Below, piece after piece: positions 2,820 to 56,129 of a DNA stretch of 64,000 bases. This stretch comes from a virus, in IMG/VR virus record IMGVR_UViG_3300036832_001138, positions 1 to 64,000 of that record. One strand, given 5' to 3'. Position 1 is the stretch's first letter; each line of letters begins with the position of its first letter. The notes beneath the pieces were generated by a model. That model did no database searches. It saw nothing but the letters and a program-made list of their open reading frames with translations, and was not told the origin of the DNA. The position numbers and the translations under genes were made by a program.

Positions 2820-2914
2820 GCGCCCGGCAGTCACCGTTTGGAGTTCACATCATTCCTGGCCGGGCGCGGCGGTCGCACGAACGCGATGGAGTTCAGAAGA
2901 ATAATGGCGACCGC
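2820..2914 (-). ncRNA. Orphan TIGR-like mini-array (2 guide units)
   Basis: gcgcccgg-ca-gtcaccgtt-tggagttca-catcattcc-tgg-ccgggcgc-g-gcggtcg-ca-cgaacgcga-tggagttca-gaagaataa-tgg-cgaccgc; same architecture as the 53.7-56.1 kb arrays. Confidence 0.9.
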
Positions 2915-2942: not shown

Positions 2943-4103
2943 ATGGCGAGAACACCCACACGAGTACCCGCATTTCCGACAACGCCGCCGGGCGCGGGCG
3001 TGCCGACGCGCGTACCGGGGCCGTCGCTTCCTCCCGTGGGTACGCGCTCGCCCACGCGCGTGCCCGCTGCGCCGCAGACCGCGCCGGGCAACGGCTTTCC
3101 CAATGCGGTGCGTATTCCGCAAACGTCGCCGGTCGGCCCGACCTACCCGGTGCACAGCCCGCCCGCGCCTACCGTCGGCTCGCGCTTCCCGGCGAATTCT
3201 CCGCCTCTGCCCATCGTGCCCGCGCGCTATCCCAACAGCGCGCGGCTGACGGCGGAGGCGGTGATCAGGGGGGCGAGCTTTCCCAATCGAAGCAGTCCGG
3301 GCATGGCGTTGCCGACGCCAACCGGGCAATTCCCCGATCACCCGACGGCGCAACTCCCGGCCCCGCCCGCGCAATTCCCCGACCGATTCGATCCGGGTAT
3401 GACGCTGCCGACGCCAGTCTCGCACTTCCGTCACTACAACAAGCCGGGTGAGCCGGGCTCGGGCGGGTTTGATCCCGCACCTGCGCCAAATCGGCGCTTC
3501 CCGACGCGGCATATCGATCCGCTCACGCGCATCCCGCGGTGGCGGCAACGGCTGCGTATCGCCTCATTCAAGGGGATTGAATTCTACGTCGAGCAACAAG
3601 GGCGCACGTCCGGCACGCGTACCGTCTTGCATCAATATCCGAAGCGCTCTGTGCCCTATGCCGAATCCATGGGACGCGAGGCGTTGCACTACGCGGTCAC
3701 CGGCTATCTGATCCAATCGCCGAACTGGCCGACGGGCGCGTCGTATTACGAGATGCTCTCGGATTATTCCGATCAGCGCGACAGCCTCGAAGCGGCGTTG
3801 ATGGACCCGGTGCCGGGCGAATTGCGTGATCCGCACACGCCGTATCTCGGCGTTGGTTACGCGCCGCTTCTGTTCATGTGTGAGAAGTACACGATCGTCG
3901 AGCAACGCGAGAAGGGCGGTTTTTGCTCGATCGAAATGAGCTTCGTCGAGGCTGGCGTCGCTGGCATGTCGATCCAAATGCAAGACACCGCTGGCGTCGT
4001 CGCCAACGCCGCGAACAACGCGAGCACTGCCGTAGCCGCGCAGGCTAATGCGCAACTCGGTGCCGTCAATCAACCCGGCGCTGCGCTCGCGTTTGAAGAA
4101 TAG
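2943..4103 (+). CDS. DNA circulation protein (Mu gpN-like) N-terminal domain with a Pro-rich extension
   Basis: 'WRQRLRIASFKGIEFYVEQQGRTSGTRTVLHQYPKRSVPYAESMGR' resembles DNA_circ_N; 'CSIEMSFVEAG' follows. Confidence 0.8.
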   Translation: MARTPTRVPAFPTTPPGAGVPTRVPGPSLPPVGTRSPTRVPAAPQTAPGNGFPNAVRIPQTSPVGPTYPVHSPPAPTVGSRFPANSPPLPIVPARYPNSARLTAEAVIRGASFPNRSSPGMALPTPTGQFPDHPTAQLPAPPAQFPDRFDPGMTLPTPVSHFRHYNKPGEPGSGGFDPAPAPNRRFPTRHIDPLTRIPRWRQRLRIASFKGIEFYVEQQGRTSGTRTVLHQYPKRSVPYAESMGREALHYAVTGYLIQSPNWPTGASYYEMLSDYSDQRDSLEAALMDPVPGELRDPHTPYLGVGYAPLLFMCEKYTIVEQREKGGFCSIEMSFVEAGVAGMSIQMQDTAGVVANAANNASTAVAAQANAQLGAVNQPGAALAFEE

Positions 4104-9205: not shown

Positions 9206-10309
9206 ATGCCGTGGGTCACGCCAACGTTGCAGCAATGCCGCGAGATCGTGCGCGACGATATCACCGCGTCTTTGCAGGGCGCGGCCGTGGTCGGCAACAC
9301 GGTGCTGCGCGTTATGTCCGATGCGATGGCGGGGATCGGCGCGCTCGTGCTGCGATACGAGGATTGGCAGGCGCGGCAATTGATGGTCGACCAAGCCGAG
9401 AAGGAATGGCTCGATCGGCACGGGAACATATGGCTCGTGAACGCCGACGGCACGACCGGCCGCAAGGGCGCGACCACGGCATCCGGTACGGTAACCTTCA
9501 CGGGCGTTGCAGGCGTGACCGTTGCCGCGGGCACCGAGCTTGTGTCACCTGACGGGCAGGCGTTTTACGATACGCTGGAATTCATCACGCTCGGCACGGC
9601 ACCGGTCGAGGTTGCCGTTCGCGCGACGACCGCCGGGGCGGCGGGCAACATACCCGCGGGCACCGCGCTGGCGCTGACCGTTCCGGAATCCGGCGTCGAT
9701 AGTGCGGTCATCGTCGTCGATCTGCGCGGCGGTGAGGAAGTCGAGAGCGATGACGAACTCCGCGCGCGCGTGCTCGCGCGTATCCGCCAGCCACCGATGG
9801 GCGGCTGCGCTTACGATTACGAGCATTGGGCGATGAGCATTCCGAGCGTGACGCGTGCATGGTGCGCGCCGCGCGAGATGGGAATGGGCACCGTGACGGT
9901 GCGATTCATGTGCGACGCGTTGCGGCCGGAAACCAGCGGCATCCCGACGCAAGACGATATCAATATCGTGCGCAACTATCTCGACACGGTGCGCCCGGTC
10001 GCGGTGCGAGATTTCTTCGTTGAAGCGCCCGTGCCCGAGCCGATCAATTTCAATCTCGCGCTCAAACAGGATTCTCTCGCGCTGCGCGGGCAAGTGCAAG
10101 CGTCAGTCGCGGCGATGATCAGCGAGAAGGCCGCGCCCGCGCACCAAGTCGACGGCGAGCTTGTGGCGGGCACGACGATTCTCGCATCGTGGGTTGCGGA
10201 GGCGATCAACCGCTGCACGAATGATTTCACGCTCGATATGCAAGATCATCCCATGCCGCACAACGGGGCAATCGGGGTACTCGGTGCGATCAGCTATCCG
10301 ATTCCGTAG
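9206..10309 (+). CDS. Baseplate J / Mu gp47-like protein
   Basis: 'WLDRHG...RKGATTASG', 'GGEEVESDDELRARVLARIRQPPMGGCAYDYEHWA', 'GMGTVTV'. Confidence 0.9.
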   Translation: MPWVTPTLQQCREIVRDDITASLQGAAVVGNTVLRVMSDAMAGIGALVLRYEDWQARQLMVDQAEKEWLDRHGNIWLVNADGTTGRKGATTASGTVTFTGVAGVTVAAGTELVSPDGQAFYDTLEFITLGTAPVEVAVRATTAGAAGNIPAGTALALTVPESGVDSAVIVVDLRGGEEVESDDELRARVLARIRQPPMGGCAYDYEHWAMSIPSVTRAWCAPREMGMGTVTVRFMCDALRPETSGIPTQDDINIVRNYLDTVRPVAVRDFFVEAPVPEPINFNLALKQDSLALRGQVQASVAAMISEKAAPAHQVDGELVAGTTILASWVAEAINRCTNDFTLDMQDHPMPHNGAIGVLGAISYPIP

Positions 10310-10319
10310 AGAGAAGGGC

Positions 10320-10369
10320 GAGCCCCGGCAGTCACGCTCTGGAGTTCATGAATTCGATGGCCGGGGCTC
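10320..10369 (-). ncRNA. Orphan TIGR-like guide unit
   Basis: gagccccgg-ca-gtcacgctc-tggagttca-tgaattcga-tgg-ccggggctc, intergenic between baseplate J and the gp48-like gene. Confidence 0.88.
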
Positions 10370-14040: not shown

Positions 14041-14075
14041 GATTGCTCTCACCTCAAACAGAAGGAGTCGTCATT

Positions 14076-14708
14076 ATGGTCGGAAGACTCGCCTACATCG
14101 TGTTTCTGGATTCCGGTGGTCCGGTCGATCCGGGCTTCGGCGTTCCCGGTTGGCCCGCGCATCCTATCGCACCGGGCGGGCCGCCTCCCGGCATCTGGCC
14201 CGGTCCCGGCTACCCGGCACATCCGATCGCGCCCGGTGGTTCTCCGCCCGGCATTTGGGGCGGTGCGCCAGCATGGCCCGCGCACCCGATCGCGCCCGGT
14301 GGTCGGCCTCCGGGTTTTTGGGGCGGGTCACCCGCATGGCCGAGCCATCCCATCGCGCCCGGTGGTTCGCCTCCGGGTATTTGGGGCGGCGTTCCGCCGA
14401 ACTACATCGACATCGGGTTACCGGGCCAGCCGCCCGGCATTTGGGGCGGTGGCAATCAACCGTTCCCGACGCCGCCGATCTACATTCCGATCCCGCCCGG
14501 CGAGCAGCCGCCCGAAGGCGGCAATGGGCTCTTGCCTAGTCATCCGATTGTGATTCCACCGTCGGAAGGCGTTCCCGAAGATAGCCAAAAATACTTGGTT
14601 CACGTTTACGTCGCGGGGGTTGGTGGAGTGTGGTTCTTGATCCAACCGCCGCCCATGCCGACGCATCCGTGGGTGCCGCCCGCTCCACCGGCAGGGCCGA
14701 AGGCGTAA
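14076..14708 (+). CDS. Pro/Gly-rich repeat protein (PAHPIAPGGxPPGIWGG repeats)
   Basis: SD gaaggagtc at 14061; four to five ~19-aa tandem repeats. Confidence 0.7.
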   Translation: MVGRLAYIVFLDSGGPVDPGFGVPGWPAHPIAPGGPPPGIWPGPGYPAHPIAPGGSPPGIWGGAPAWPAHPIAPGGRPPGFWGGSPAWPSHPIAPGGSPPGIWGGVPPNYIDIGLPGQPPGIWGGGNQPFPTPPIYIPIPPGEQPPEGGNGLLPSHPIVIPPSEGVPEDSQKYLVHVYVAGVGGVWFLIQPPPMPTHPWVPPAPPAGPKA

Positions 14709-14863: not shown

Positions 14864-14915
14864 GTGATCCGGGCATCAGGTTATTGGAGTTCATAGGTCG
14901 CGTGGCCGGGATCAC
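14864..14915 (-). ncRNA. Orphan TIGR-like guide unit
   Basis: gtgatccggg-ca-tcaggttat-tggagttca-taggtcgcg-tgg-ccgggatcac; new stem sequence but the same boxes and 9-nt spacers. Confidence 0.85.
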
Positions 14916-40882: not shown

Positions 40883-41461
40883 TCATTCAGTCTGCCATCC
40901 GCTCGGTCGTGTTGGATCGTCATGGGGGCGTGGCGGCTCGTGCCGTCCTTTATCCTTAGCAAGAGCGAGAAGTTCGCTCACATCTTGCACACGCATCACC
41001 TTCTCAATTATCTTGTTAAGGTCGACGCGCAGCGAGCGTATTTCATGCTCAATTTGGTCGAGTCGGGAAGGGGCCTCGCGCGTTCGCTCCCCGCTATCCA
41101 CACGTCTTTCCAGCGCTAAAATTCGCCGAGCGAGCACAGCGGGATGCAATTCCATCGCTTCGAGCACGCGCATGCGCTCGCGCATGTTCTCTATCGACCC
41201 TTCGGCCCGGTTCAAGGCGTCGAGCGCAGCCGATATCTGCAACGCCAAATGCTCGGCTCGCGGGACGATGCTCTTGTGGACGAAATTTTCCAAGCGGCGA
41301 TGCTGCTCGTCGAGCACTTCGGCCGCGGCGCGGTCGCCCCATCGCTGCCAATTCGGCAGATCAACCGGGACAAGCCGCGTACCCTGCGCTCGCAAGGTGC
41401 GTGGCGGCGTGAAGCCGGTAATCTTGCGCTTGATCTTCCGTTTTCGCTTTTTCATTTGCAT
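40883..41461 (-). CDS. Basic N-terminus coiled-coil protein (near-target of two guides)
   Basis: SD aggagtc; 192 aa. Confidence 0.6.
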   Translation of the reverse strand: MQMKKRKRKIKRKITGFTPPRTLRAQGTRLVPVDLPNWQRWGDRAAAEVLDEQHRRLENFVHKSIVPRAEHLALQISAALDALNRAEGSIENMRERMRVLEAMELHPAVLARRILALERRVDSGERTREAPSRLDQIEHEIRSLRVDLNKIIEKVMRVQDVSELLALAKDKGRHEPPRPHDDPTRPSGWQTE

Positions 41462-48288: not shown

Positions 48289-49935
48289 GTGGCGTTCCTT
48301 CCGGGCTTGTCGGGATGCGGCGGTGCTATGGCATTCGAGGGCGAAGCGCCCAATGGCGCGGAAATGTTTCTTACCGAGCGCGTGGCGCTGCATCACGGCG
48401 ATTGCCGGGCCGTGCTCGCGACCCTGCCGGAAAATTCCCTCGATAGCTGCGTCACCGATCCGCCCTATCACCTGATCAGCATCGTCAAGCGCTTCGGTGA
48501 TGAAAACGCCAAGCCTGCGAGGCCGTTTGCTCGATCAAATCTTGTACGTGATCCCGATACATTGCAGCCGATTATTGGTAAGCAGAGCACGAGTCAATAT
48601 GGCCGCCTCTCGACCGGCTTCATGGGCAAAGTTTGGGACGGCGGCAATGTTGCGGCTGATCCCGAGACATGGCGCGCGGTGTATCGCGTGCTCAAACCGG
48701 GCGCGCATCTTCTCGCGATGGGCGGCACCCGCACTTATCACCGCATGGCGTGCGCAATCGAGGATGCGGGGTTTGAGATCAGAGATTGCGTGCAATGGCT
48801 GTACGGCTCTGGATTTCCGAAATCGCAAAACGTAGCAATTGCTATTGATAAACAAGCTGGAGCATCTGAGCACAGATCAAAAAGGTTCAATACAGCGGGT
48901 GGCGGCCTGCCACCAATCGAAAAACAAGAACTGCGATCAGACAACTCTGAATATCAGCCGTACTCACCTAAAATTGACGCCGCGCGCGAATGGGAAGGAT
49001 GGGGCACCGCGCTCAAGCCCGCCTGCGAGTTGATCGTGCTCGCGCGCAAGCCGCTCTCGGAAAAGACCGTCGCCGCCAATGTGCTCAAGTGGGGAACGGG
49101 GGCGATCAATGTGGATGGGTGTCGGGTTCCGACAGACGAGAAATTGAATTCGCGCGATGGATACAAGACTGACGGCTTACATGATGGCTACAAGCGCCCT
49201 TGGATGACTGATGAAAAACATGACGCTAGATCGCGAATTGCTATTGAAAAAGCAGAATGTCTTGGACGCTGGCCCGCTAATTTAATCCACGACGGAAGTG
49301 ATGAAGTCGTCGCGGCGTTTCCTGACGGCCGTTCTGCTGGCGACTATCCAAGTGAAAGTCGGGGAACCGGAAACGGCACAACTTATCTGCCCGTAAAACC
49401 GCAGGGCCAACTCTATTCCGATTCCGGTTCTGCCGCCCGTTTCTTCTACACCGCGAAGGCCGACAGCGACGATCGGCTCGGCTCAAAGCACCCCACGATC
49501 AAGCCGCTCGACCTGATTCAATATCTTGTTCGGCTGATCTCACCGCGCGGCGGCACAGTGCTCGATCCGTTTGCCGGGAGCGGCACAACCGGCGAGGCGG
49601 CATGGCGCGAGGGCATGCGCGCGGTGCTGATCGAGCGCGAGGATGAATACTGCGCCGATATTCGCCGCCGCATGGCGCTCGTGCTCGCCGGTCCGGAGGA
49701 ACGCACGCGCGAATCCATCAAAGCCCGCGGGCAGGTCGAACAGAATGCGGGGCCGCTCTTTGATTGGAAACCCCGCTCGCAAGGCTCGCCCATTGCGCGG
49801 GTGCTTCAATCATGTCCGCTTTATCCGGGTTGCGGTTGCGGCACGCAATCGGGCCCGCATACATGCGAATGGCGCGCGCAGGACCGCGATCGAGAGCTTT
49901 ATCGCGGCCGCACCAAATCCGGAGACATGATGTGA
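48289..49935 (+). CDS. DNA amino-methyltransferase (N6A/N4C, beta class)
   Basis: DPPY motif, then 'HPTIKPLDL...VLDPFAGSGTT'; the true start may be 48328 or 48364. Confidence 0.9.
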   Translation: MAFLPGLSGCGGAMAFEGEAPNGAEMFLTERVALHHGDCRAVLATLPENSLDSCVTDPPYHLISIVKRFGDENAKPARPFARSNLVRDPDTLQPIIGKQSTSQYGRLSTGFMGKVWDGGNVAADPETWRAVYRVLKPGAHLLAMGGTRTYHRMACAIEDAGFEIRDCVQWLYGSGFPKSQNVAIAIDKQAGASEHRSKRFNTAGGGLPPIEKQELRSDNSEYQPYSPKIDAAREWEGWGTALKPACELIVLARKPLSEKTVAANVLKWGTGAINVDGCRVPTDEKLNSRDGYKTDGLHDGYKRPWMTDEKHDARSRIAIEKAECLGRWPANLIHDGSDEVVAAFPDGRSAGDYPSESRGTGNGTTYLPVKPQGQLYSDSGSAARFFYTAKADSDDRLGSKHPTIKPLDLIQYLVRLISPRGGTVLDPFAGSGTTGEAAWREGMRAVLIEREDEYCADIRRRMALVLAGPEERTRESIKARGQVEQNAGPLFDWKPRSQGSPIARVLQSCPLYPGCGCGTQSGPHTCEWRAQDRDRELYRGRTKSGDMM

Positions 49936-50703: not shown

Positions 50704-52848
50704 GTGATGCTGGAGATCGAGCCCATAGCTCGCGCATTGCTCGGCGAGCCCAACGCGAAGCTATCTTCGCAATTCGAATGGCGATATGGCAACCGCGGCT
50801 CGCTTTCAATCGATCTGCGCAAGAATGTTTGGCACGACCACGAAACCGACGAGAGCGGCGGATGCCTCGATCTGATCACTCACAAGACCGGACTCGACGG
50901 CCCGGAGCGTGCGCAATGGATGCACGATCGCGGCATCGGCAATGGATACGATCAAACGACCAAGCGCCCGGAGATCGTGGCGACGTTTCCCTATAATGAC
51001 GAATACGGCAAGGAGCTTTTTCAGGTTGTCAAATTCGAGCCGAAGGATTTCCGCCAGCGGCGGCAAGACAAGACCGCGCCCGGCGGCTATCGCTGGTCGG
51101 TCAAGGGCGTGCGGCGAATTCCCTATCGCCTCGACGATTTGTCAGAAAAAATCGAAGGGCGCATTTTCATCGCCGAAGGCGAAAAAGACGTTGATACGCT
51201 TTGGCGGCACAACATTCCAGCGACGTGCAATGCCGGGGGCGCAGGCAAGTGGCATCCCGAACTCACCGAATTTTTCCGCAACAAGACCGACAACGTAGTT
51301 GTACTGCCCGATCGTGATCCGCCGAAGAAAGACCCAAAGACCGGCGCGGAAATGAAGCACGAGGATGGGCGGTTCATTCGGCCGGGGCAAGACCACGCAC
51401 AAGAGATCGCGGCAGAGATGCATCGCATTGGCGTACCCGTGCGCGTGGTCGAGCTTTGGCGCGATTGGCCGGAGATGCCCGAGAAGGGTGACGTAACCGA
51501 TTGGTTCGATCATGGCGGCACGGCCGACCGGCTACAGAAAATTGTTCAAGACGCCCCATTTTGGAAACCGGGCGATCAAGCTGACGACGGCGCGCTGCTC
51601 AAGCTCCAATCCGTGTTTCCGATCAACGAGCGCGCACTCCCAACGCGCAATTGGATCATGCCAGGACTTTTAATGCGGCGTCAGGTAACCGTGTTGGTAG
51701 CACCAAGTGGTGTGGGCAAAAGTTTGCTCACGCTGCAATTAGGTATCGCCTGTGCACAAGGCCGAAAATGGAGCGGTTGGACTCCGCGCCGTACATTCAA
51801 CGTGCTGTTTATCAACTCGGAAGATGACTATTTCGAAATCTGCCGCAGGCTCGCCGCGGCCACGCAAAGGATGCGACTCGGCGCACATAACGAATTCGAA
51901 ATTGATCAGCTAGGAATCGCCGATCGCTTCCATATCGCCGATGCCGAGCAGAGCGGTACTGTTGTTGCCAAGTTTGACGCACGAACCAAAACGCTCGTGA
52001 GCACACCGTTGCACGATCAACTGATCGAAACAATAAAAGCCAACCAAATCGATGTGGTCTTCGTCGATCCGTTTGCCGAGACTTTCGAGGGCGACGAAAA
52101 TTCCAATAGCGAATTGAAGTGGGCGGGCGCGTTATGGCGCAAGGTTGCGCGGCAAACCGATGCTGCGGTTTGTCTCGTGCATCATACAAAAAAATATGCA
52201 AGCGGGCTGCAAGGTGACGTTGATGCGGCGCGCGGTGCTGGTGCGCTGATCGGAATCGCGCGCATTGTCTCGACGCTATTTCCGATGACGCCGAAGGAAG
52301 CGGAAGCGATGGGCGTCAAGCTCGGAGATAGGTCGCTCTATTTGCGATACGATGATGCGAAAGCAAATCTGAATTTGGTTTCTCCGTTTGCGCGCTGGTT
52401 TCAAAAGACCACGATCACGCTCGACAATGCATGCGGCGATCCTAACAGCGACGACTTTGTGCCCGGCGACGAAGTGGGCGTGCTCAATCCATGGAAGCCT
52501 GAAACGAAAGACGTGCACGAAGCTCAGATCATCGGATTTTTCAAGGCGATCGATCGCGGCATGGTCGACGATGCTGATCAACCGACCGGCGAATTCTGGA
52601 CCTTCAAAAAGGGCAAGAGCGGCGCGAGATACGTCGGCTACCTCGCGCAAAGCTTTTTCAAATGCGATGCGCTCTCGCAAGCCGAAGCGCTGATCCGCAA
52701 GTGGGAAGGCACAAGATTGAAAACGATTCAATTCAAGGCGCGGAACGGTCACCTTCGTGATCGCGTCGTGAGCGAGCTTTCCCCCGACTTCCCGCGCCCC
52801 GAGGCCGCGCCGATCGAGCCGATGGCACAGCTTTTTCCTGCCGAATAG
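50704..52848 (+). CDS. Primase-helicase (TOPRIM + AAA_25/RepA-like helicase)
   Basis: TOPRIM 'IFIAEGEKD...LPDRD', 'KGDVTDW'; Walker A APSGVGKS; 'VFVDP', 'LVHHTKK', 'ARGAGAL'. Confidence 0.9.
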   Translation: MMLEIEPIARALLGEPNAKLSSQFEWRYGNRGSLSIDLRKNVWHDHETDESGGCLDLITHKTGLDGPERAQWMHDRGIGNGYDQTTKRPEIVATFPYNDEYGKELFQVVKFEPKDFRQRRQDKTAPGGYRWSVKGVRRIPYRLDDLSEKIEGRIFIAEGEKDVDTLWRHNIPATCNAGGAGKWHPELTEFFRNKTDNVVVLPDRDPPKKDPKTGAEMKHEDGRFIRPGQDHAQEIAAEMHRIGVPVRVVELWRDWPEMPEKGDVTDWFDHGGTADRLQKIVQDAPFWKPGDQADDGALLKLQSVFPINERALPTRNWIMPGLLMRRQVTVLVAPSGVGKSLLTLQLGIACAQGRKWSGWTPRRTFNVLFINSEDDYFEICRRLAAATQRMRLGAHNEFEIDQLGIADRFHIADAEQSGTVVAKFDARTKTLVSTPLHDQLIETIKANQIDVVFVDPFAETFEGDENSNSELKWAGALWRKVARQTDAAVCLVHHTKKYASGLQGDVDAARGAGALIGIARIVSTLFPMTPKEAEAMGVKLGDRSLYLRYDDAKANLNLVSPFARWFQKTTITLDNACGDPNSDDFVPGDEVGVLNPWKPETKDVHEAQIIGFFKAIDRGMVDDADQPTGEFWTFKKGKSGARYVGYLAQSFFKCDALSQAEALIRKWEGTRLKTIQFKARNGHLRDRVVSELSPDFPRPEAAPIEPMAQLFPAE

Positions 52849-53647
52849 GTTCGTCAACGGCGACGCGACGCCATTCGCTCAGCAAATCTTTGAGAAATTG
52901 TTTCATCGTGATGCGCAGCGCATCTTTGCGCCGATGGCCGTCGGTCCAATCCGGGTGCGCTTTCTTGGTGTAGGCGCGGCGCTTAGCATAGATTTCGCCA
53001 TAGTGGCCCTTTGGCTTGCCTTCGCCGCCGGTTTTCTTTGCGCCAATCCACTGCGCGTTCACGAGCCACGTCGCGATCTGTGCCATCAGCGCATAGCGCT
53101 CCCCGGAAAAAGGATTTTCGATCCATTCGTCGGCGCTCAGCGCGCGCGGTCGCCACGTCGTGCGTTTCCACGTTGATCCGGCGTGGCCGTCGTATGGTGC
53201 GAAGCCGAGCCGCTTCCATAACTTGCTCGGCTTGGAATAATTCGAGAGATCGCCAGCTTCGGCGACGATGGTCGCGAGCCCGAGCGCGCCTGCGCCGTGA
53301 ATCTTTTCGATCCATGGATAAACCGGTAGCTCGCACGCGGCAGCCTCCATTCGCTTTTCCGTGGCAGCACGCCGTTCATCAGCGGGCGCACGCGCAGGAT
53401 CGCATACCTGCAACACTTCTTCCGCCAGCGGATGCGCTTCGCCCTCGCGAATGCGCTTGATAATTTCGCGCACCTCGCGGTTCGATTTCTCGCGCTCGGC
53501 ATCGCTGGCGTTAGGATTCCATTTGGTGCCATTGATACGAATGAAGCTTTCGAGCGAGCGGTCAAGTTTCTGTTGCACTTTCATTGCGAACCGTCGCTTT
53601 CGATGCAGGCCGCGGATCAATTCGATGGTTTCGGATTGTTGGGTCAT
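52733..53647 (-). CDS. TIGR-associated Nop-domain protein without a nuclease domain (TasA-like)
   Basis: 'IHGAGALGLATIVAEAGDLSNYSKPSKLWKRLGFAP' and 'GHYGEIY..RR...HRRKDALRITMKQFLKDL' resemble the IS110/Nop RNA-binding region; starts at the coiled coil with no DEDD-RuvC or HNH; directly downstream of the array. Confidence 0.8.
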   Translation of the reverse strand: MTQQSETIELIRGLHRKRRFAMKVQQKLDRSLESFIRINGTKWNPNASDAEREKSNREVREIIKRIREGEAHPLAEEVLQVCDPARAPADERRAATEKRMEAAACELPVYPWIEKIHGAGALGLATIVAEAGDLSNYSKPSKLWKRLGFAPYDGHAGSTWKRTTWRPRALSADEWIENPFSGERYALMAQIATWLVNAQWIGAKKTGGEGKPKGHYGEIYAKRRAYTKKAHPDWTDGHRRKDALRITMKQFLKDLLSEWRRVAVDEPIRQEKAVPSARSARPRGAGSRGKARSRRDHEGDRSAP

Positions 53648-53676: not shown

Positions 53677-54214
53677 GCGAGCCCGGCAACCGGTCAATGG
53701 AGTTCACGATCGCCTTGGCCGGGCTCGCGGCGGTCGCAAGCGGCGTGTGGAGTTCACAGACGTGATGGCGACCGCATTGGTGGATTAGGGTGCGAGCCCG
53801 GCACTCGCGATATGGAGTTCAAGTGCTGGTAGGCCGGGCTCGCGGCGGTCGCAACGCAACGTTGGAGTTCACATGATCTTTGGCGACCGCATTCGAGAAT
53901 AGAGCGCCCGGCATGCCGTTTGTGGAGTTCAATCACGTGCTGGCCGGGCGCGGCGGTCGCACGGAGGCGCTGGAGTTCACGATCTACATGGCGACCGCAT
54001 CGGTGGATTGGGTGCGAGCCCGGCATTGGCCGACAGGAGTTCAACCCTTTCCTGGCCGGGCTCGCTACGGTCGCATTGCGCGCGTGGAGTTCACTCAGAT
54101 CGTGGCGACCGCAAAAGGTGCGCCCGGCAGCGTTGTCATGGAGCACACAAGTGTTTTGGCCGGGCGCGGCGGTCGCAACCGCTCCGTGGAGTTCACTACT
54201 GTTTTGGCGACCGC
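53677..54214 (-). ncRNA. TIGR-like stem-loop guide array, proximal (10 units)
   Basis: Minus strand unit: stem-CCA-N9-TGAACTCCA-N9-TG-stem'; stems alternate between GCGGTCG and GCG(A)GCCCGG; all spacer pairs differ. Confidence 0.9.
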
Positions 54215-54226
54215 ATTTCGTGAATA

Positions 54227-54898
54227 TCATGACCGTGCATCGCCCTCGATTTCTGACGGCTTGCGCGCGGCGGCGATCAGATCGCTTGCGACCTTCGCCG
54301 AGCCGTCGCGGATCACTTCGACGGCTTTGATCCTAGCGTCGTTATAGTATTGCACGGCAATCTTGAGCGGTATCACCTTCTCGACTTCGCCGTGCGGATC
54401 GGCGGCGACGCAATAGTCATTCAACCGCCGGATTGCGATCGCGTCGACTGCATCATCATAACCGCGCTGTAGGAAATCTCCGGCCGTGTTTGCCAGATTT
54501 TCCGCGATGGCGCGCAATTCGTGTACGCGCAGCTTCCCAAGCGGACCATAACCACGGATTTTGCGGTTGAATATCTCGGCGGCGACGGCTTGCCCGGCGG
54601 CGATCGCTCCCGCCTTTTGCGCGTCGGTGGGTGTGCGGAGCAGACTGCTCCGGCGATGCTTGCCCTCGCGGCGGCGCGCGGCGGGCTTCGGGTGCGCGAT
54701 CCGCGGTAGCTTCGTTTCGCTCGACGGCGACGACAAGCGCGACAGGTAATCAGCAACGAGCGCGATAAGCAGCGGCCGCTTCGCATTGTCCATCAACGCG
54801 CGTGCCAGCGTCGGTGCGGCTTTGTTCACACTATTGTTGCTGGCGCGCAGCGCTTCGATCGCGGCGTCGCGGAGCTTATCGAGATCAGAGGCGGCCAT
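54227..54898 (-). CDS. Hypothetical helical protein embedded between the two arrays
   Basis: 223-aa ORF with SD gaagga; it fills the gap between the arrays exactly. Confidence 0.7.
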   Translation of the reverse strand: MAASDLDKLRDAAIEALRASNNSVNKAAPTLARALMDNAKRPLLIALVADYLSRLSSPSSETKLPRIAHPKPAARRREGKHRRSSLLRTPTDAQKAGAIAAGQAVAAEIFNRKIRGYGPLGKLRVHELRAIAENLANTAGDFLQRGYDDAVDAIAIRRLNDYCVAADPHGEVEKVIPLKIAVQYYNDARIKAVEVIRDGSAKVASDLIAAARKPSEIEGDARS

Positions 54899-54929
54899 GT
54901 GTTTGGTGTCCTTCTCGTTTGAAAAAAGT

Positions 54930-56121
54930 GCGAGCCCGGCAAGTGGTGACTGGAGTCCACGTCGGATCAGGCCGGGCTCGCGGCGGTCGCAGAATTGTTT
55001 TGGAGTTCACCAAGGCACTGGCGACCGCATTCGAGATAAGAGCGCCCGGCAGGCTACATTTGGAGTTCATAGGGCCAATGGCCGGGCGCGGCGGTCGCAG
55101 CGCAAGATTGGAGTTCACGTGATCTTTGGCGACCGCATTCGAGGGAAAGAGTGCGCCCGGCAGAGCTTCACAGGAGTTCACGCCGAATTTGGCCGGGCGC
55201 GGCGGTCGCATCTCGTCGTTGGAGTTCAATCGTGTGCTGGCGACCGCATTTCGAATAGGTGCGCCCGGCAGAAGCCGGTTGGAGTTCAGGCCAGCATTGG
55301 CCGGGCGCGGCGGTCGCACGACACCAATGGAGTGCAAGGGAGAACAGGCGACCGCATTCGAGATGGGTGCGCCCGGCAGGTCATCGTTGGAGTTCACGTG
55401 CTTGATGGCCGGGCGCGGCGGTCGCAATCTCTGGATGGAGTTCATACAAATGCTGGCGACCGCATTCGGGTGAAAGAGAGCGCCCGGCATTTCCATTTTG
55501 GAGTTCAACTGATCGCTGGCCGGGCGCGGCGGTCGCATTCCAAACCTGGAGTTCATCAGCTTACTGGCGACCGCAGTCGGTTTGATAGGTGCGCCCGGCA
55601 AGGCGATGTTGGAGTTCATATTGCCGGTGGCCGGGCGCGGCGGTCGCAGATAGGTGCAGGAGTTCACACCCGAATTGGCGACCGCGTTGGTGATAGGTGC
55701 GCCCGGCAATGATTGCTTGGAGTTCATCATGAAGGTGGCCGGGCGCGGCGGTCGCAGCGTGGCGTTGGAGTTCACGGGATCAGTGGCGACCGCGTTCGTT
55801 GTGATAGGTGCGCCCGGCAGACAGCGATCGGAGTGCACGTTCACCAGGGCCGGGCGCGGCGGTCGCAGTGGCAGTATGGAGTTCATTCGGCACCTGGCGA
55901 CCGCATTCGAGAATAGAGCGCCCGGCACGCCTCCCTTGGAGATCAATGCCGAAATGGCCGGGCGCGGCGGTCGCATCCTCGATCTGGAGTGCATCAGTGG
56001 CATGGCGACCGCGTTCGTGAAAAGGTGCGCCCGGCAGACGAGTTCTGGAGTTCACGACTACGATGGCCGGGCGCGGCGGTCGCACCTTGAACTTGGAGTT
56101 CAACCACGTCGTGGCGACCGC
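54930..56121 (-). ncRNA. TIGR-like stem-loop guide array, distal (22 units)
   Basis: Eleven two-hairpin modules (~105-115 bp period); same CCA/TG boxes, 9-nt spacers and 9-nt loop repeat. Confidence 0.92.
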
Positions 56122-56129
56122 ATGCCAAA

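Follow-up and report, generated by a model that had tools for sequence, protein, structure and literature searches.

In the soil phage whose 73,077-bp genome is held as IMG/VR virus record IMGVR_UViG_3300036832_001138, a 17-bp site in an early gene resembles the target predicted for a guide RNA of a TIGR-Tas system encoded by the same phage. Analyzed here were positions 1 to 64,000 of that record (the window). The site lies in a block of minus-strand genes that includes RecT-like, RecE-like and DNA methyltransferase genes, while the plus-strand genes at 1-17 kb encode baseplate, tail-fiber and endolysin proteins. The features that matter for the argument are the following:

40883-41461, minus strand: target open reading frame (ORF), 192 aa, with predicted helices after a basic N-terminal tail (MQMKKRKRKIKRKI...)
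41421-41437, no strand assigned: 17-bp candidate target site, whose plus strand reads ATCTTGCGCTTGATCTT
52733-53647, minus strand: tas, 304 aa, immediately downstream of the array, with a coiled coil and a Nop-like domain
53679-54215, minus strand: tas-proximal sub-array, 10 units
53844-53891, minus strand: tigRNA unit 30 (core 53852-53883), with spacer A AAGATCATG at 53880-53872 and spacer B ACGTTGCGT at 53862-53854
54227-54898, minus strand: companion ORF, 223 aa, between the two sub-arrays
54932-56122, minus strand: promoter-proximal sub-array, 22 units, in which two stem types alternate (GCGGTCGC.. / GCGCCCGGC..)
55090-55137, minus strand: tigRNA unit 20 (core 55098-55129), read as stem-CCA-AAGATCACG-TGAACTCCA-ATCTTGCGC-TG-stem
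55129-55127, minus strand: box C of unit 20, followed by spacer A AAGATCACG (55126-55118) and the loop TGAACTCCA (55117-55109)
55108-55100, minus strand: spacer B ATCTTGCGC of unit 20, followed by box D (55099-55098)

The repeats at 53.7-56.1 kb are, by their sequence, a stem-loop TIGR array. In stem-loop TIGR systems box C is CCA, box D is UG and the interval made of box C, nine spacer nucleotides and box D measures 14 nt (Faure 2025, PMC12045711; Xu 2026, 10.64898/2026.09.09.750476; these papers and Guan 2026, 10.64898/2026.08.11.744272, are cited throughout from the accessible parts of their texts). A total of 38 units passed the acceptance threshold of at least 7 complementary positions out of 9 in the flanks; 22 and 10 of them form the two sub-arrays, six are scattered along the genome, and all lie on the minus strand. 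On that strand a unit consists of an 8-9-bp stem arm, CCA-N9-TG-AACT-CCA-N9-TG and the other stem arm. The more permissive pattern CC[A/T/C]-N9-TG-N4-CC[A/G/T]-N9-TG fits 38/38 units (the first box being CCA in 34, CCT in three and CCC in one), and both spacers vary at all nine positions. RNA folding of three units gave a terminal stem of 8-9 bp in each, and that of unit 20 measures 8 bp. The orientation of the array was inferred from the box motifs, the co-orientation with tas, and an upstream terminator and promoter-like hexamers.

The protein encoded by tas points in the same direction. Its AlphaFold model (mean pLDDT 67.9) is helical throughout from residue 2 and shows no additional N-terminal domain; the best PDB folds for this model are TIGR-TasR (9mty, E 2.5e-4) and TasH (9w03/9w02/9vzx), with IS110-type recombinases and Nop5 ranking next, and a PDB profile search with the protein also returned 9mty (E 0.004). 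The NCBIfam model NF052498 ('TIGR-Tas system RNA-guided endonuclease') matches with E 1.5e-17 and 64.3 bits, below its curated cut-off of 100 and over residues 58-260 only, and PF02371 matches at E 5e-4, just below the Pfam cut-off. Pfam detected no nuclease family in Tas, neither a RuvC nor an HNH domain, which makes it a TasA-type protein. The phage thus carries a stem-loop TIGR-Tas system of the TasA subtype, and the assumption of the preliminary description that the region encodes a guide array holds. Relatives of this Tas were found in 14 viral contigs and in 33 soil or sludge metagenome contigs, and none among 185,579 species genomes. The companion ORF matched no family in Pfam, PHROG or NCBIfam; it shares 26% identity (E 3e-10) with the ORF directly upstream of tas in the sibling phage G002, and could be an accessory gene conserved in this TIGR clade. 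By position, the sibling G003 appears to have a similar ORF at the same place.

The site at 41421-41437 corresponds to nt 25-41 of the target ORF, that is, to codons 9-14 (K-I-K-R-K-I). Positions 41421-41429 equal the spacer B sequence of unit 20 in 9/9 positions, and positions 41429-41437 are complementary to its spacer A in 8/9; the single mismatch falls at A8 (C in the guide, A in the site in gene sense). Since the C:G pair at 41429 is common to both halves, the target measures 17 bp and not the published 18. The contiguous 18-mer that joins spacer B and the reverse complement of spacer A without a gap is absent from the genome, and at gap 0 and gaps of +1 to +4 none of the 38 guides has a match of at least 17/18 in it. 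When the 38 guides were compared with the 73,077 bp in 4 geometries and 8 spacings, the unit 20 site was the sole match of at least 17/18. For a set of 38 guides, one or more self-hits of this kind in the overlap geometry would arise by chance with a probability of 0.011 with spacers shuffled internally and 0.032 with real spacers re-paired (3000 sets each), while 2 hits among 1406 pseudo-guides give 0.054. The near-match of 16/17 reported earlier near the 5' end of this ORF was seen again, as 9/9 plus 8/9, and the site is a plausible cognate of the unit at 55098-55129. The spacer lengths behind that earlier match, 9 and 8 nt, do not follow the box C/box D rule, which gives 9 and 9; the resulting 17-mer is the same, and the geometry reached by counting spacer A as 8 nt is the one that the family evidence supports.

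This geometry was derived from the published orientation of the spacers and from the guides of the phage and its relatives. In published structures of the complex the box-C ends of both spacers mark the outer borders of the melted DNA (Guan 2026), and the C-5 rule and the 8-nt 3' overhang described in Faure 2025 lead to the same orientation; a target read on one strand consequently consists of spacer B and then spacer A in reverse complement. The last bases of the two spacers, A9 and B9, are Watson-Crick complementary in 156/312 guides of the phage and its relatives, where about 25% would be expected. In the phage and three relatives the count is 40/80 (20.3 expected; 0/200,000 permutations reach 40), and further sets gave 96/196 and, in hold-out guides, 20/36. 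All four pair types occur, and G-U adds approximately a further fifth. No other cell among the 81 Ai:Bj position pairs was reproducible: A6:B6 reached 37/80 in the first set (60/100,000 permutations reach that), fell to 41/196 in the second and was dropped. The A9:B9 signal points to a common central base pair in the target or to an RNA-RNA pair at the center of the complex.

Matches among relatives favor the same arrangement. A search of 279 distinct guides against 630,699 bases of the phage and its relatives, in 20 geometry and spacing settings, found five guides with a match of at least 17/18 in the setting 'B then reverse complement of A, overlap 1' and ten in the 19 other settings (0-3 each); none was found at gap 0 or +1. 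In hold-out loci the corresponding numbers were two guides at overlap 1 and one in the 19 other settings. When only the outer 8+8 bases were read, 15 guides matched with one central base, compared to 5, 5, 8 and 10 with 0, 2, 3 and 4, and of the strand arrangements only the order B, then reverse-complemented A, was enriched. Self-hits of at least 16/18 in eight genomes numbered seven at overlap 1 (1.46 expected) and 0-3 in each of the 19 other settings (about 1 expected). Additionally, 4/7 of the self-hits at overlap 1 lie within 1.5 kb of their own unit, compared to 0/17 in the other settings; these four are spread over three genomes and include one in the 5' part of tas in G001. A target of 17 bp with a common central pair looks like the natural geometry of this phage family, to judge from covariation and matches.

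Unit 30 fits the same site at 14/18, or 14/17 with A9 supplying the central base; elsewhere in the genome its score stays below 14, so that 41421-41437 ranks first alone. This match had been taken as a second guide converging on the site, possibly through repeated acquisition; the match itself is confirmed and the independent convergence is not. Units 20 and 30 share 14/18 spacer bases, the highest value among 703 pairs (the next best pair shares 12), so that the fit of unit 30 follows from its kinship with unit 20 and is not independent evidence. The array neighbors of unit 30 are unrelated to those of unit 20, which indicates duplication of the unit only and not of a segment; both may be copies of one duplicated unit that have since diverged. 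With four differences, binding of unit 30 to the site in its own genome is unlikely.

The target ORF appears to be a real gene, since its GC content by codon position (.68/.43/.65) is like that of the long genes of the phage genome (.63/.49/.70). It matched no known family in Pfam, PHROG or NCBIfam, a protein-atlas look-up gave no lead above 0.84, and no homologs were found in eight sibling virus records or in the viral contig set. Similarly, megablast of the 38-58 kb region against 50,697 phage records gave no match. No RNA sequencing run was listed for this stretch, and in the one DNA run the identical contig alone covers the site. Among 5.8 billion proteins, however, three homologs were found. 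P0001 is 98% identical to the ORF and differs only in residues 14-19, from the last codon of the site onward; inside the site region P0002 carries R12H, and P0003 carries K11R and K13I. At the protein level, the homologs (n=3) thus vary at, and just after, the candidate site.

How such guides may be used is best seen in the sibling phages, where 5/5 informative guides fit the tas or recT allele of another phage better than that of their own. In G001, unit 49607 reads the FAMKVQ motif of tas and matches the L025 allele at 18/18 and its own at 16/18. Unit 15313 of G004, which is tas-proximal, scores 17/18 on the tas of G005, L015 and L016, the sole misfit being its own non-complementary B9, and has 6/17 mismatches to the tas of G004 even though the tas genes are 87% identical. 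Unit 1236 of the sibling metagenome contig L024 scores 17/18 on the tas of L016, of L075 and of the phage studied here, and 15/18 on its own; its site in the last of these three is as follows:

53045-53061, minus strand: match of L024 unit 1236 inside tas, 17/18, with the mismatch at B5

The last two cases concern recT. Unit 5708 of L076 scores 17/18 on G005 recT and less than 15 on its own, whereas unit 6987 of G005 scores 15 on its own recT and 16 on those of L076 and G004, so that these two phages have orthologous guides beside recT, each fitting the allele of the other better than its own. Additionally, unit 539 of L053 has a near-perfect match at a site without a gene assignment. Orthologous units (L013/G004 compared to L014/G005 and L016) keep stems, boxes and loop and have wholly unrelated spacers, which implies fast spacer turnover, and some units share spacer A alone or spacer B alone with another unit, as if halves had been swapped (G002 units 9535, 11492 and 11602; L032-L039).

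Given this pattern of sibling alleles, the leading explanation is that units 20 and 30 each target a particular allele of the early gene, the alleles being those that rival phages carry at ORF 40883-41461; we hold it tentatively, at slightly less than an even chance. By analogy with what has been published on related systems, the processed hairpin RNA would be loaded on a TasA dimer, which would melt 17 bp. The minus strand at 41421-41429 would pair with spacer B and the plus strand at 41429-41437 with spacer A; both spacers would read the same central C:G pair with their last base, one strand each, and the bound complex would form a roadblock 25-41 nt into the ORF. The guides of the family would accordingly serve as weapons against sibling phages, fitting the sibling allele and missing that of the carrier by a few bases, and the resident copy of the gene, a near-miss by one mismatch, would be spared or weakly repressed. 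Expression, processing, binding, repression and the existence of perfectly matching rival alleles are all inferred steps of this explanation. The arms race proposed in the preliminary description is in line with the five sibling guides and with the variation of the ORF homologs at the site; its prediction that homologs would show KITRK and KIMRN alleles failed, as none of the three has T or M at residue 11 (0/3, protein level).

Besides that failed prediction, several other results weigh against allele-specific guides as the explanation. The exact 17-mer of unit 20 occurs in seven IMG/VR stretches, none of them homologous to the target ORF or to this phage, and, in contrast to the five sibling cases, unit 20 has its closest known match in the gene of its own phage. 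Those guides were chosen by their best match among many alleles, so that their poorer fit to their own allele is in part a selection effect, and the independent guide-target pairs of at least 17/18 number only six. The variation among the ORF homologs could just reflect weak constraint on a basic N-terminal tail. As to the geometry, half of the guides are not complementary at A9:B9, hence the central base may not always be read, and with that base unread the chance of the self-match rises to approximately 0.06 by uniform-base arithmetic. Additionally, the published tolerance of TasR is for gaps of 0 to +2 (Faure 2025), and no report of an overlap of 1 was found in the accessible parts of the TIGR-Tas literature searched.

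A wider reading of the same observations is that TIGR-TasA acts allele by allele as a weapon of sibling rivalry, the carrier allele being marked by escape differences and guide and allele together forming a selfish cassette. As a whole we consider it possible and rather doubtful. It would have guides tuned to essential early genes of competitors (tas, recT and ORF 40883-41461), many units standing beside the resistant allele and a cassette able to spread by recombination in mixed infections, and units 20 and 30 would be an allelic series that follows a fast-changing patch of one gene.

Among the alternatives, self-regulation survives best and is still improbable to about the same degree as that wider reading. 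According to it, unit 20 would bind its own gene 25-41 nt past the start codon to lower its expression or set the timing, the mismatch beside the center being tolerated or serving to tune the strength, and unit 30 would be a duplicate that is decaying or was retargeted. No known match of unit 20 is better than the one in its own genome (17/18), and TasA guided to sites within a gene represses that gene (Xu 2026). The A8 mismatch falls outside positions 4-5, which are critical for TasR, and TaTasR was able to bind and nick a site in E. coli that matched one spacer at only 6/9 (both Faure 2025). Four units in three genomes have a 16/18 site in a neighboring gene no more than 1.5 kb away, which would also suit local circuits. 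On the other hand, the guides fit a sibling allele better wherever one is available, as with the G004 guide that misses its own tas by 6/17; a perfect match would be expected of a regulator under selection, and this alternative leaves unit 30, with its four differences, without a role. Moreover, most single mismatches strongly cut cleavage by SpTasH (Guan 2026).

Coincidence is less probable again. Unit 20 would then be aimed elsewhere (at a host, a plasmid or an unrelated phage) and the 16/17 match would have arisen by chance in 73 kb. The chance values given above (0.011-0.054, and about 0.06 with the center unread) leave room for this, the more so as the match was picked by a reader who was seeking such matches. 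Furthermore, large collections contain several exact copies of any given 17-mer. Eight related 17-mers each had 7-43 exact IMG/VR stretches among the matches listed; for the six neighboring 17-mers used as controls the range was 7-43, several of them being clustered in single gene families among the matches listed; database-wide searches are for that reason uninformative. A different target is nevertheless conceivable for unit 30, whose exact 17-mer occurs in 16 stretches, 11 of them in diverged N6_N4 DNA methyltransferase genes with the motif KIMRNV (GC-rich viral contigs among L078-L093); the phage's own methyltransferase (48289-49935) has YLVRLI at that place. These genes were rejected as the target of unit 30, since the control 17-mers show that the clustering is no greater than chance, and they stay as a lead. 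Two other candidates were also rejected: the 16/18 matches of the unit at 55209 in five records, whose contexts are non-homologous, as chance, and the 16/18 match of unit 20 to the N-terminus of the G001 integrase, which would also suit coincidence, as not significant. Three points speak against coincidence. The unit 20 site is the single best match over 32 geometry and spacing settings and falls in an independently supported geometry; self and sibling near-matches are approximately five-fold enriched in the overlap-1 geometry; and the site belongs to a real gene, near whose 5' end it falls in a stretch where the homologs differ.

That the spacer is a relic, copied from this gene or a sibling copy in a unit or system now inactive, would agree with the statement of Faure 2025 and Xu 2026 that the origin of TIGR spacers is unknown and with the fast turnover of spacers on a kept scaffold, but it is very improbable given an intact, conserved tas (115 invariant columns among four relatives), boxes and stems kept in all 38 units, and an array preceded by a terminator and promoter-like hexamers.

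The remaining features of the system are the signals ahead of the array and the units placed away from it:

56203-56182, minus strand: strong terminator of the upstream gene, 9-bp stem and T run
56159-56154 and 56135-56130, minus strand: promoter-like hexamers TTGACA and TATATG, 18 nt apart, just ahead of the first unit (by-eye reading, not listed by the scan)
2828-2907, minus strand: two solitary units between late (baseplate) genes and antisense to these
10329-10360, minus strand: solitary unit between baseplate-wedge genes
14874-14905, minus strand: solitary unit between ORF 14043-14708 and the endolysin gene
67401-67480, minus strand: two solitary units in the same record, outside the window

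The TTGACA/TATATG pair may be the promoter of the array. The six solitary units are located 12-50 kb from tas, and four of them occupy gaps between late structural genes on the opposite strand; published units are positioned upstream of, downstream of, or inside tas in the accessible texts (Faure 2025; Xu 2026). The unit at 2876-2907 has a near-match of 16/18 at 4087-4103, at the 3' end of the adjoining baseplate hub gene, and that at 10329-10360 has one of 16/18 at 9576-9592 inside the adjoining baseplate-wedge gene. ORF 14043-14708 contains a tandem repeat at 14187-14389 (63-nt period, approximately 2-3 copies). Long minus-strand open frames run through the arrays (53754-54230 and 54885-56003), and in the relatives L019, L034, L043 and L049 the tas frame runs on into array units, giving repetitive tails; units within the tas coding sequence have been described (Xu 2026).

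The closest known systems are the stem-loop TIGR-TasA systems PlTasA (from a Peromyscus gut contig) and MbTasA (from a Minisyncoccota bacterium), with which the phage system was compared (PMC12045711; 10.64898/2026.09.09.750476; 10.64898/2026.08.11.744272). It shares with them a nuclease-less Tas with a coiled coil and a Nop-like domain, hairpin units in which box C (CCA) and box D (UG) flank two 9-nt spacers around a short internal loop, sub-arrays split around tas, and spacers directed to opposite DNA strands with box-C ends outward, so that the expected effect is binding and repression and not cutting. PlTasA and MbTasA targets were designed as 9 + 9 = 18 bp, whereas the 17 bp of the phage family come from covariation and sibling matches; natural targets are reported as undetermined in the accessible text of those papers, and the candidates in the phage family are tas, recT and the early ORF. 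The phage system differs from both in its two alternating stem types and in the six units that stand between late genes, antisense to them and 12-50 kb away from tas.

With the dual-repeat systems TaTasR and SpTasH it has in common the reading of both strands by tandem spacers, a target that requires no adjacent motif, and the fold (9mty, 9w03). These are nucleases with fixed 36-nt RNAs, unlike the phage TasA. Dual-repeat arrays show no obvious covariation between A and B, which makes an overlap unlikely, and tolerate gaps of 1-2 bp (Faure 2025); in the phage clade, by contrast, A9 and B9 covary strongly (156/312) and matches occur at overlap 1 and not at gaps of 0 to +2. A more distant likeness is that to the bridge RNAs of the IS110 family, with which the system shares a related RNA-binding domain (weak matches to PF02371 and NF033542) and loops that read both strands. 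The phage system differs from these in having no DEDD/RuvC transposase domain and no pair of donor and target loops, and in its tandem arrays in place of a single RNA.

Mobile elements can carry CRISPR arrays directed at rival elements, and partially matching natural CRISPR guides can repress genes without cutting. Type IV and V-M CRISPR systems are cited in that sense in the discussion of Faure 2025. Like those cases, the phage system is RNA-guided, resides on a mobile element, would act against competitors or for repression, and lets mismatches decide between self and non-self. It differs from CRISPR in its protein family and guide architecture, in having no adaptation genes, no protospacer adjacent motif and 17-bp targets, and in that several guides of the phage family stand beside the carrier's own allele of the gene apparently attacked.

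The natural targets of TIGR-Tas systems are described as unknown, and short spacers make database matches uninformative (Faure 2025; Xu 2026). Using a phage's own genome and its close relatives as the search space gave a signal with internal controls and, with it, the first candidate natural targets. If the relationship between guides and sibling alleles is true, it would provide a rule to predict the natural targets of stem-loop TasA systems, and the overlap-one target format, apparently new to assays, would matter for guide design. The biological role of these systems would in that case be competition among related phages, or the control of the phage's own genes.

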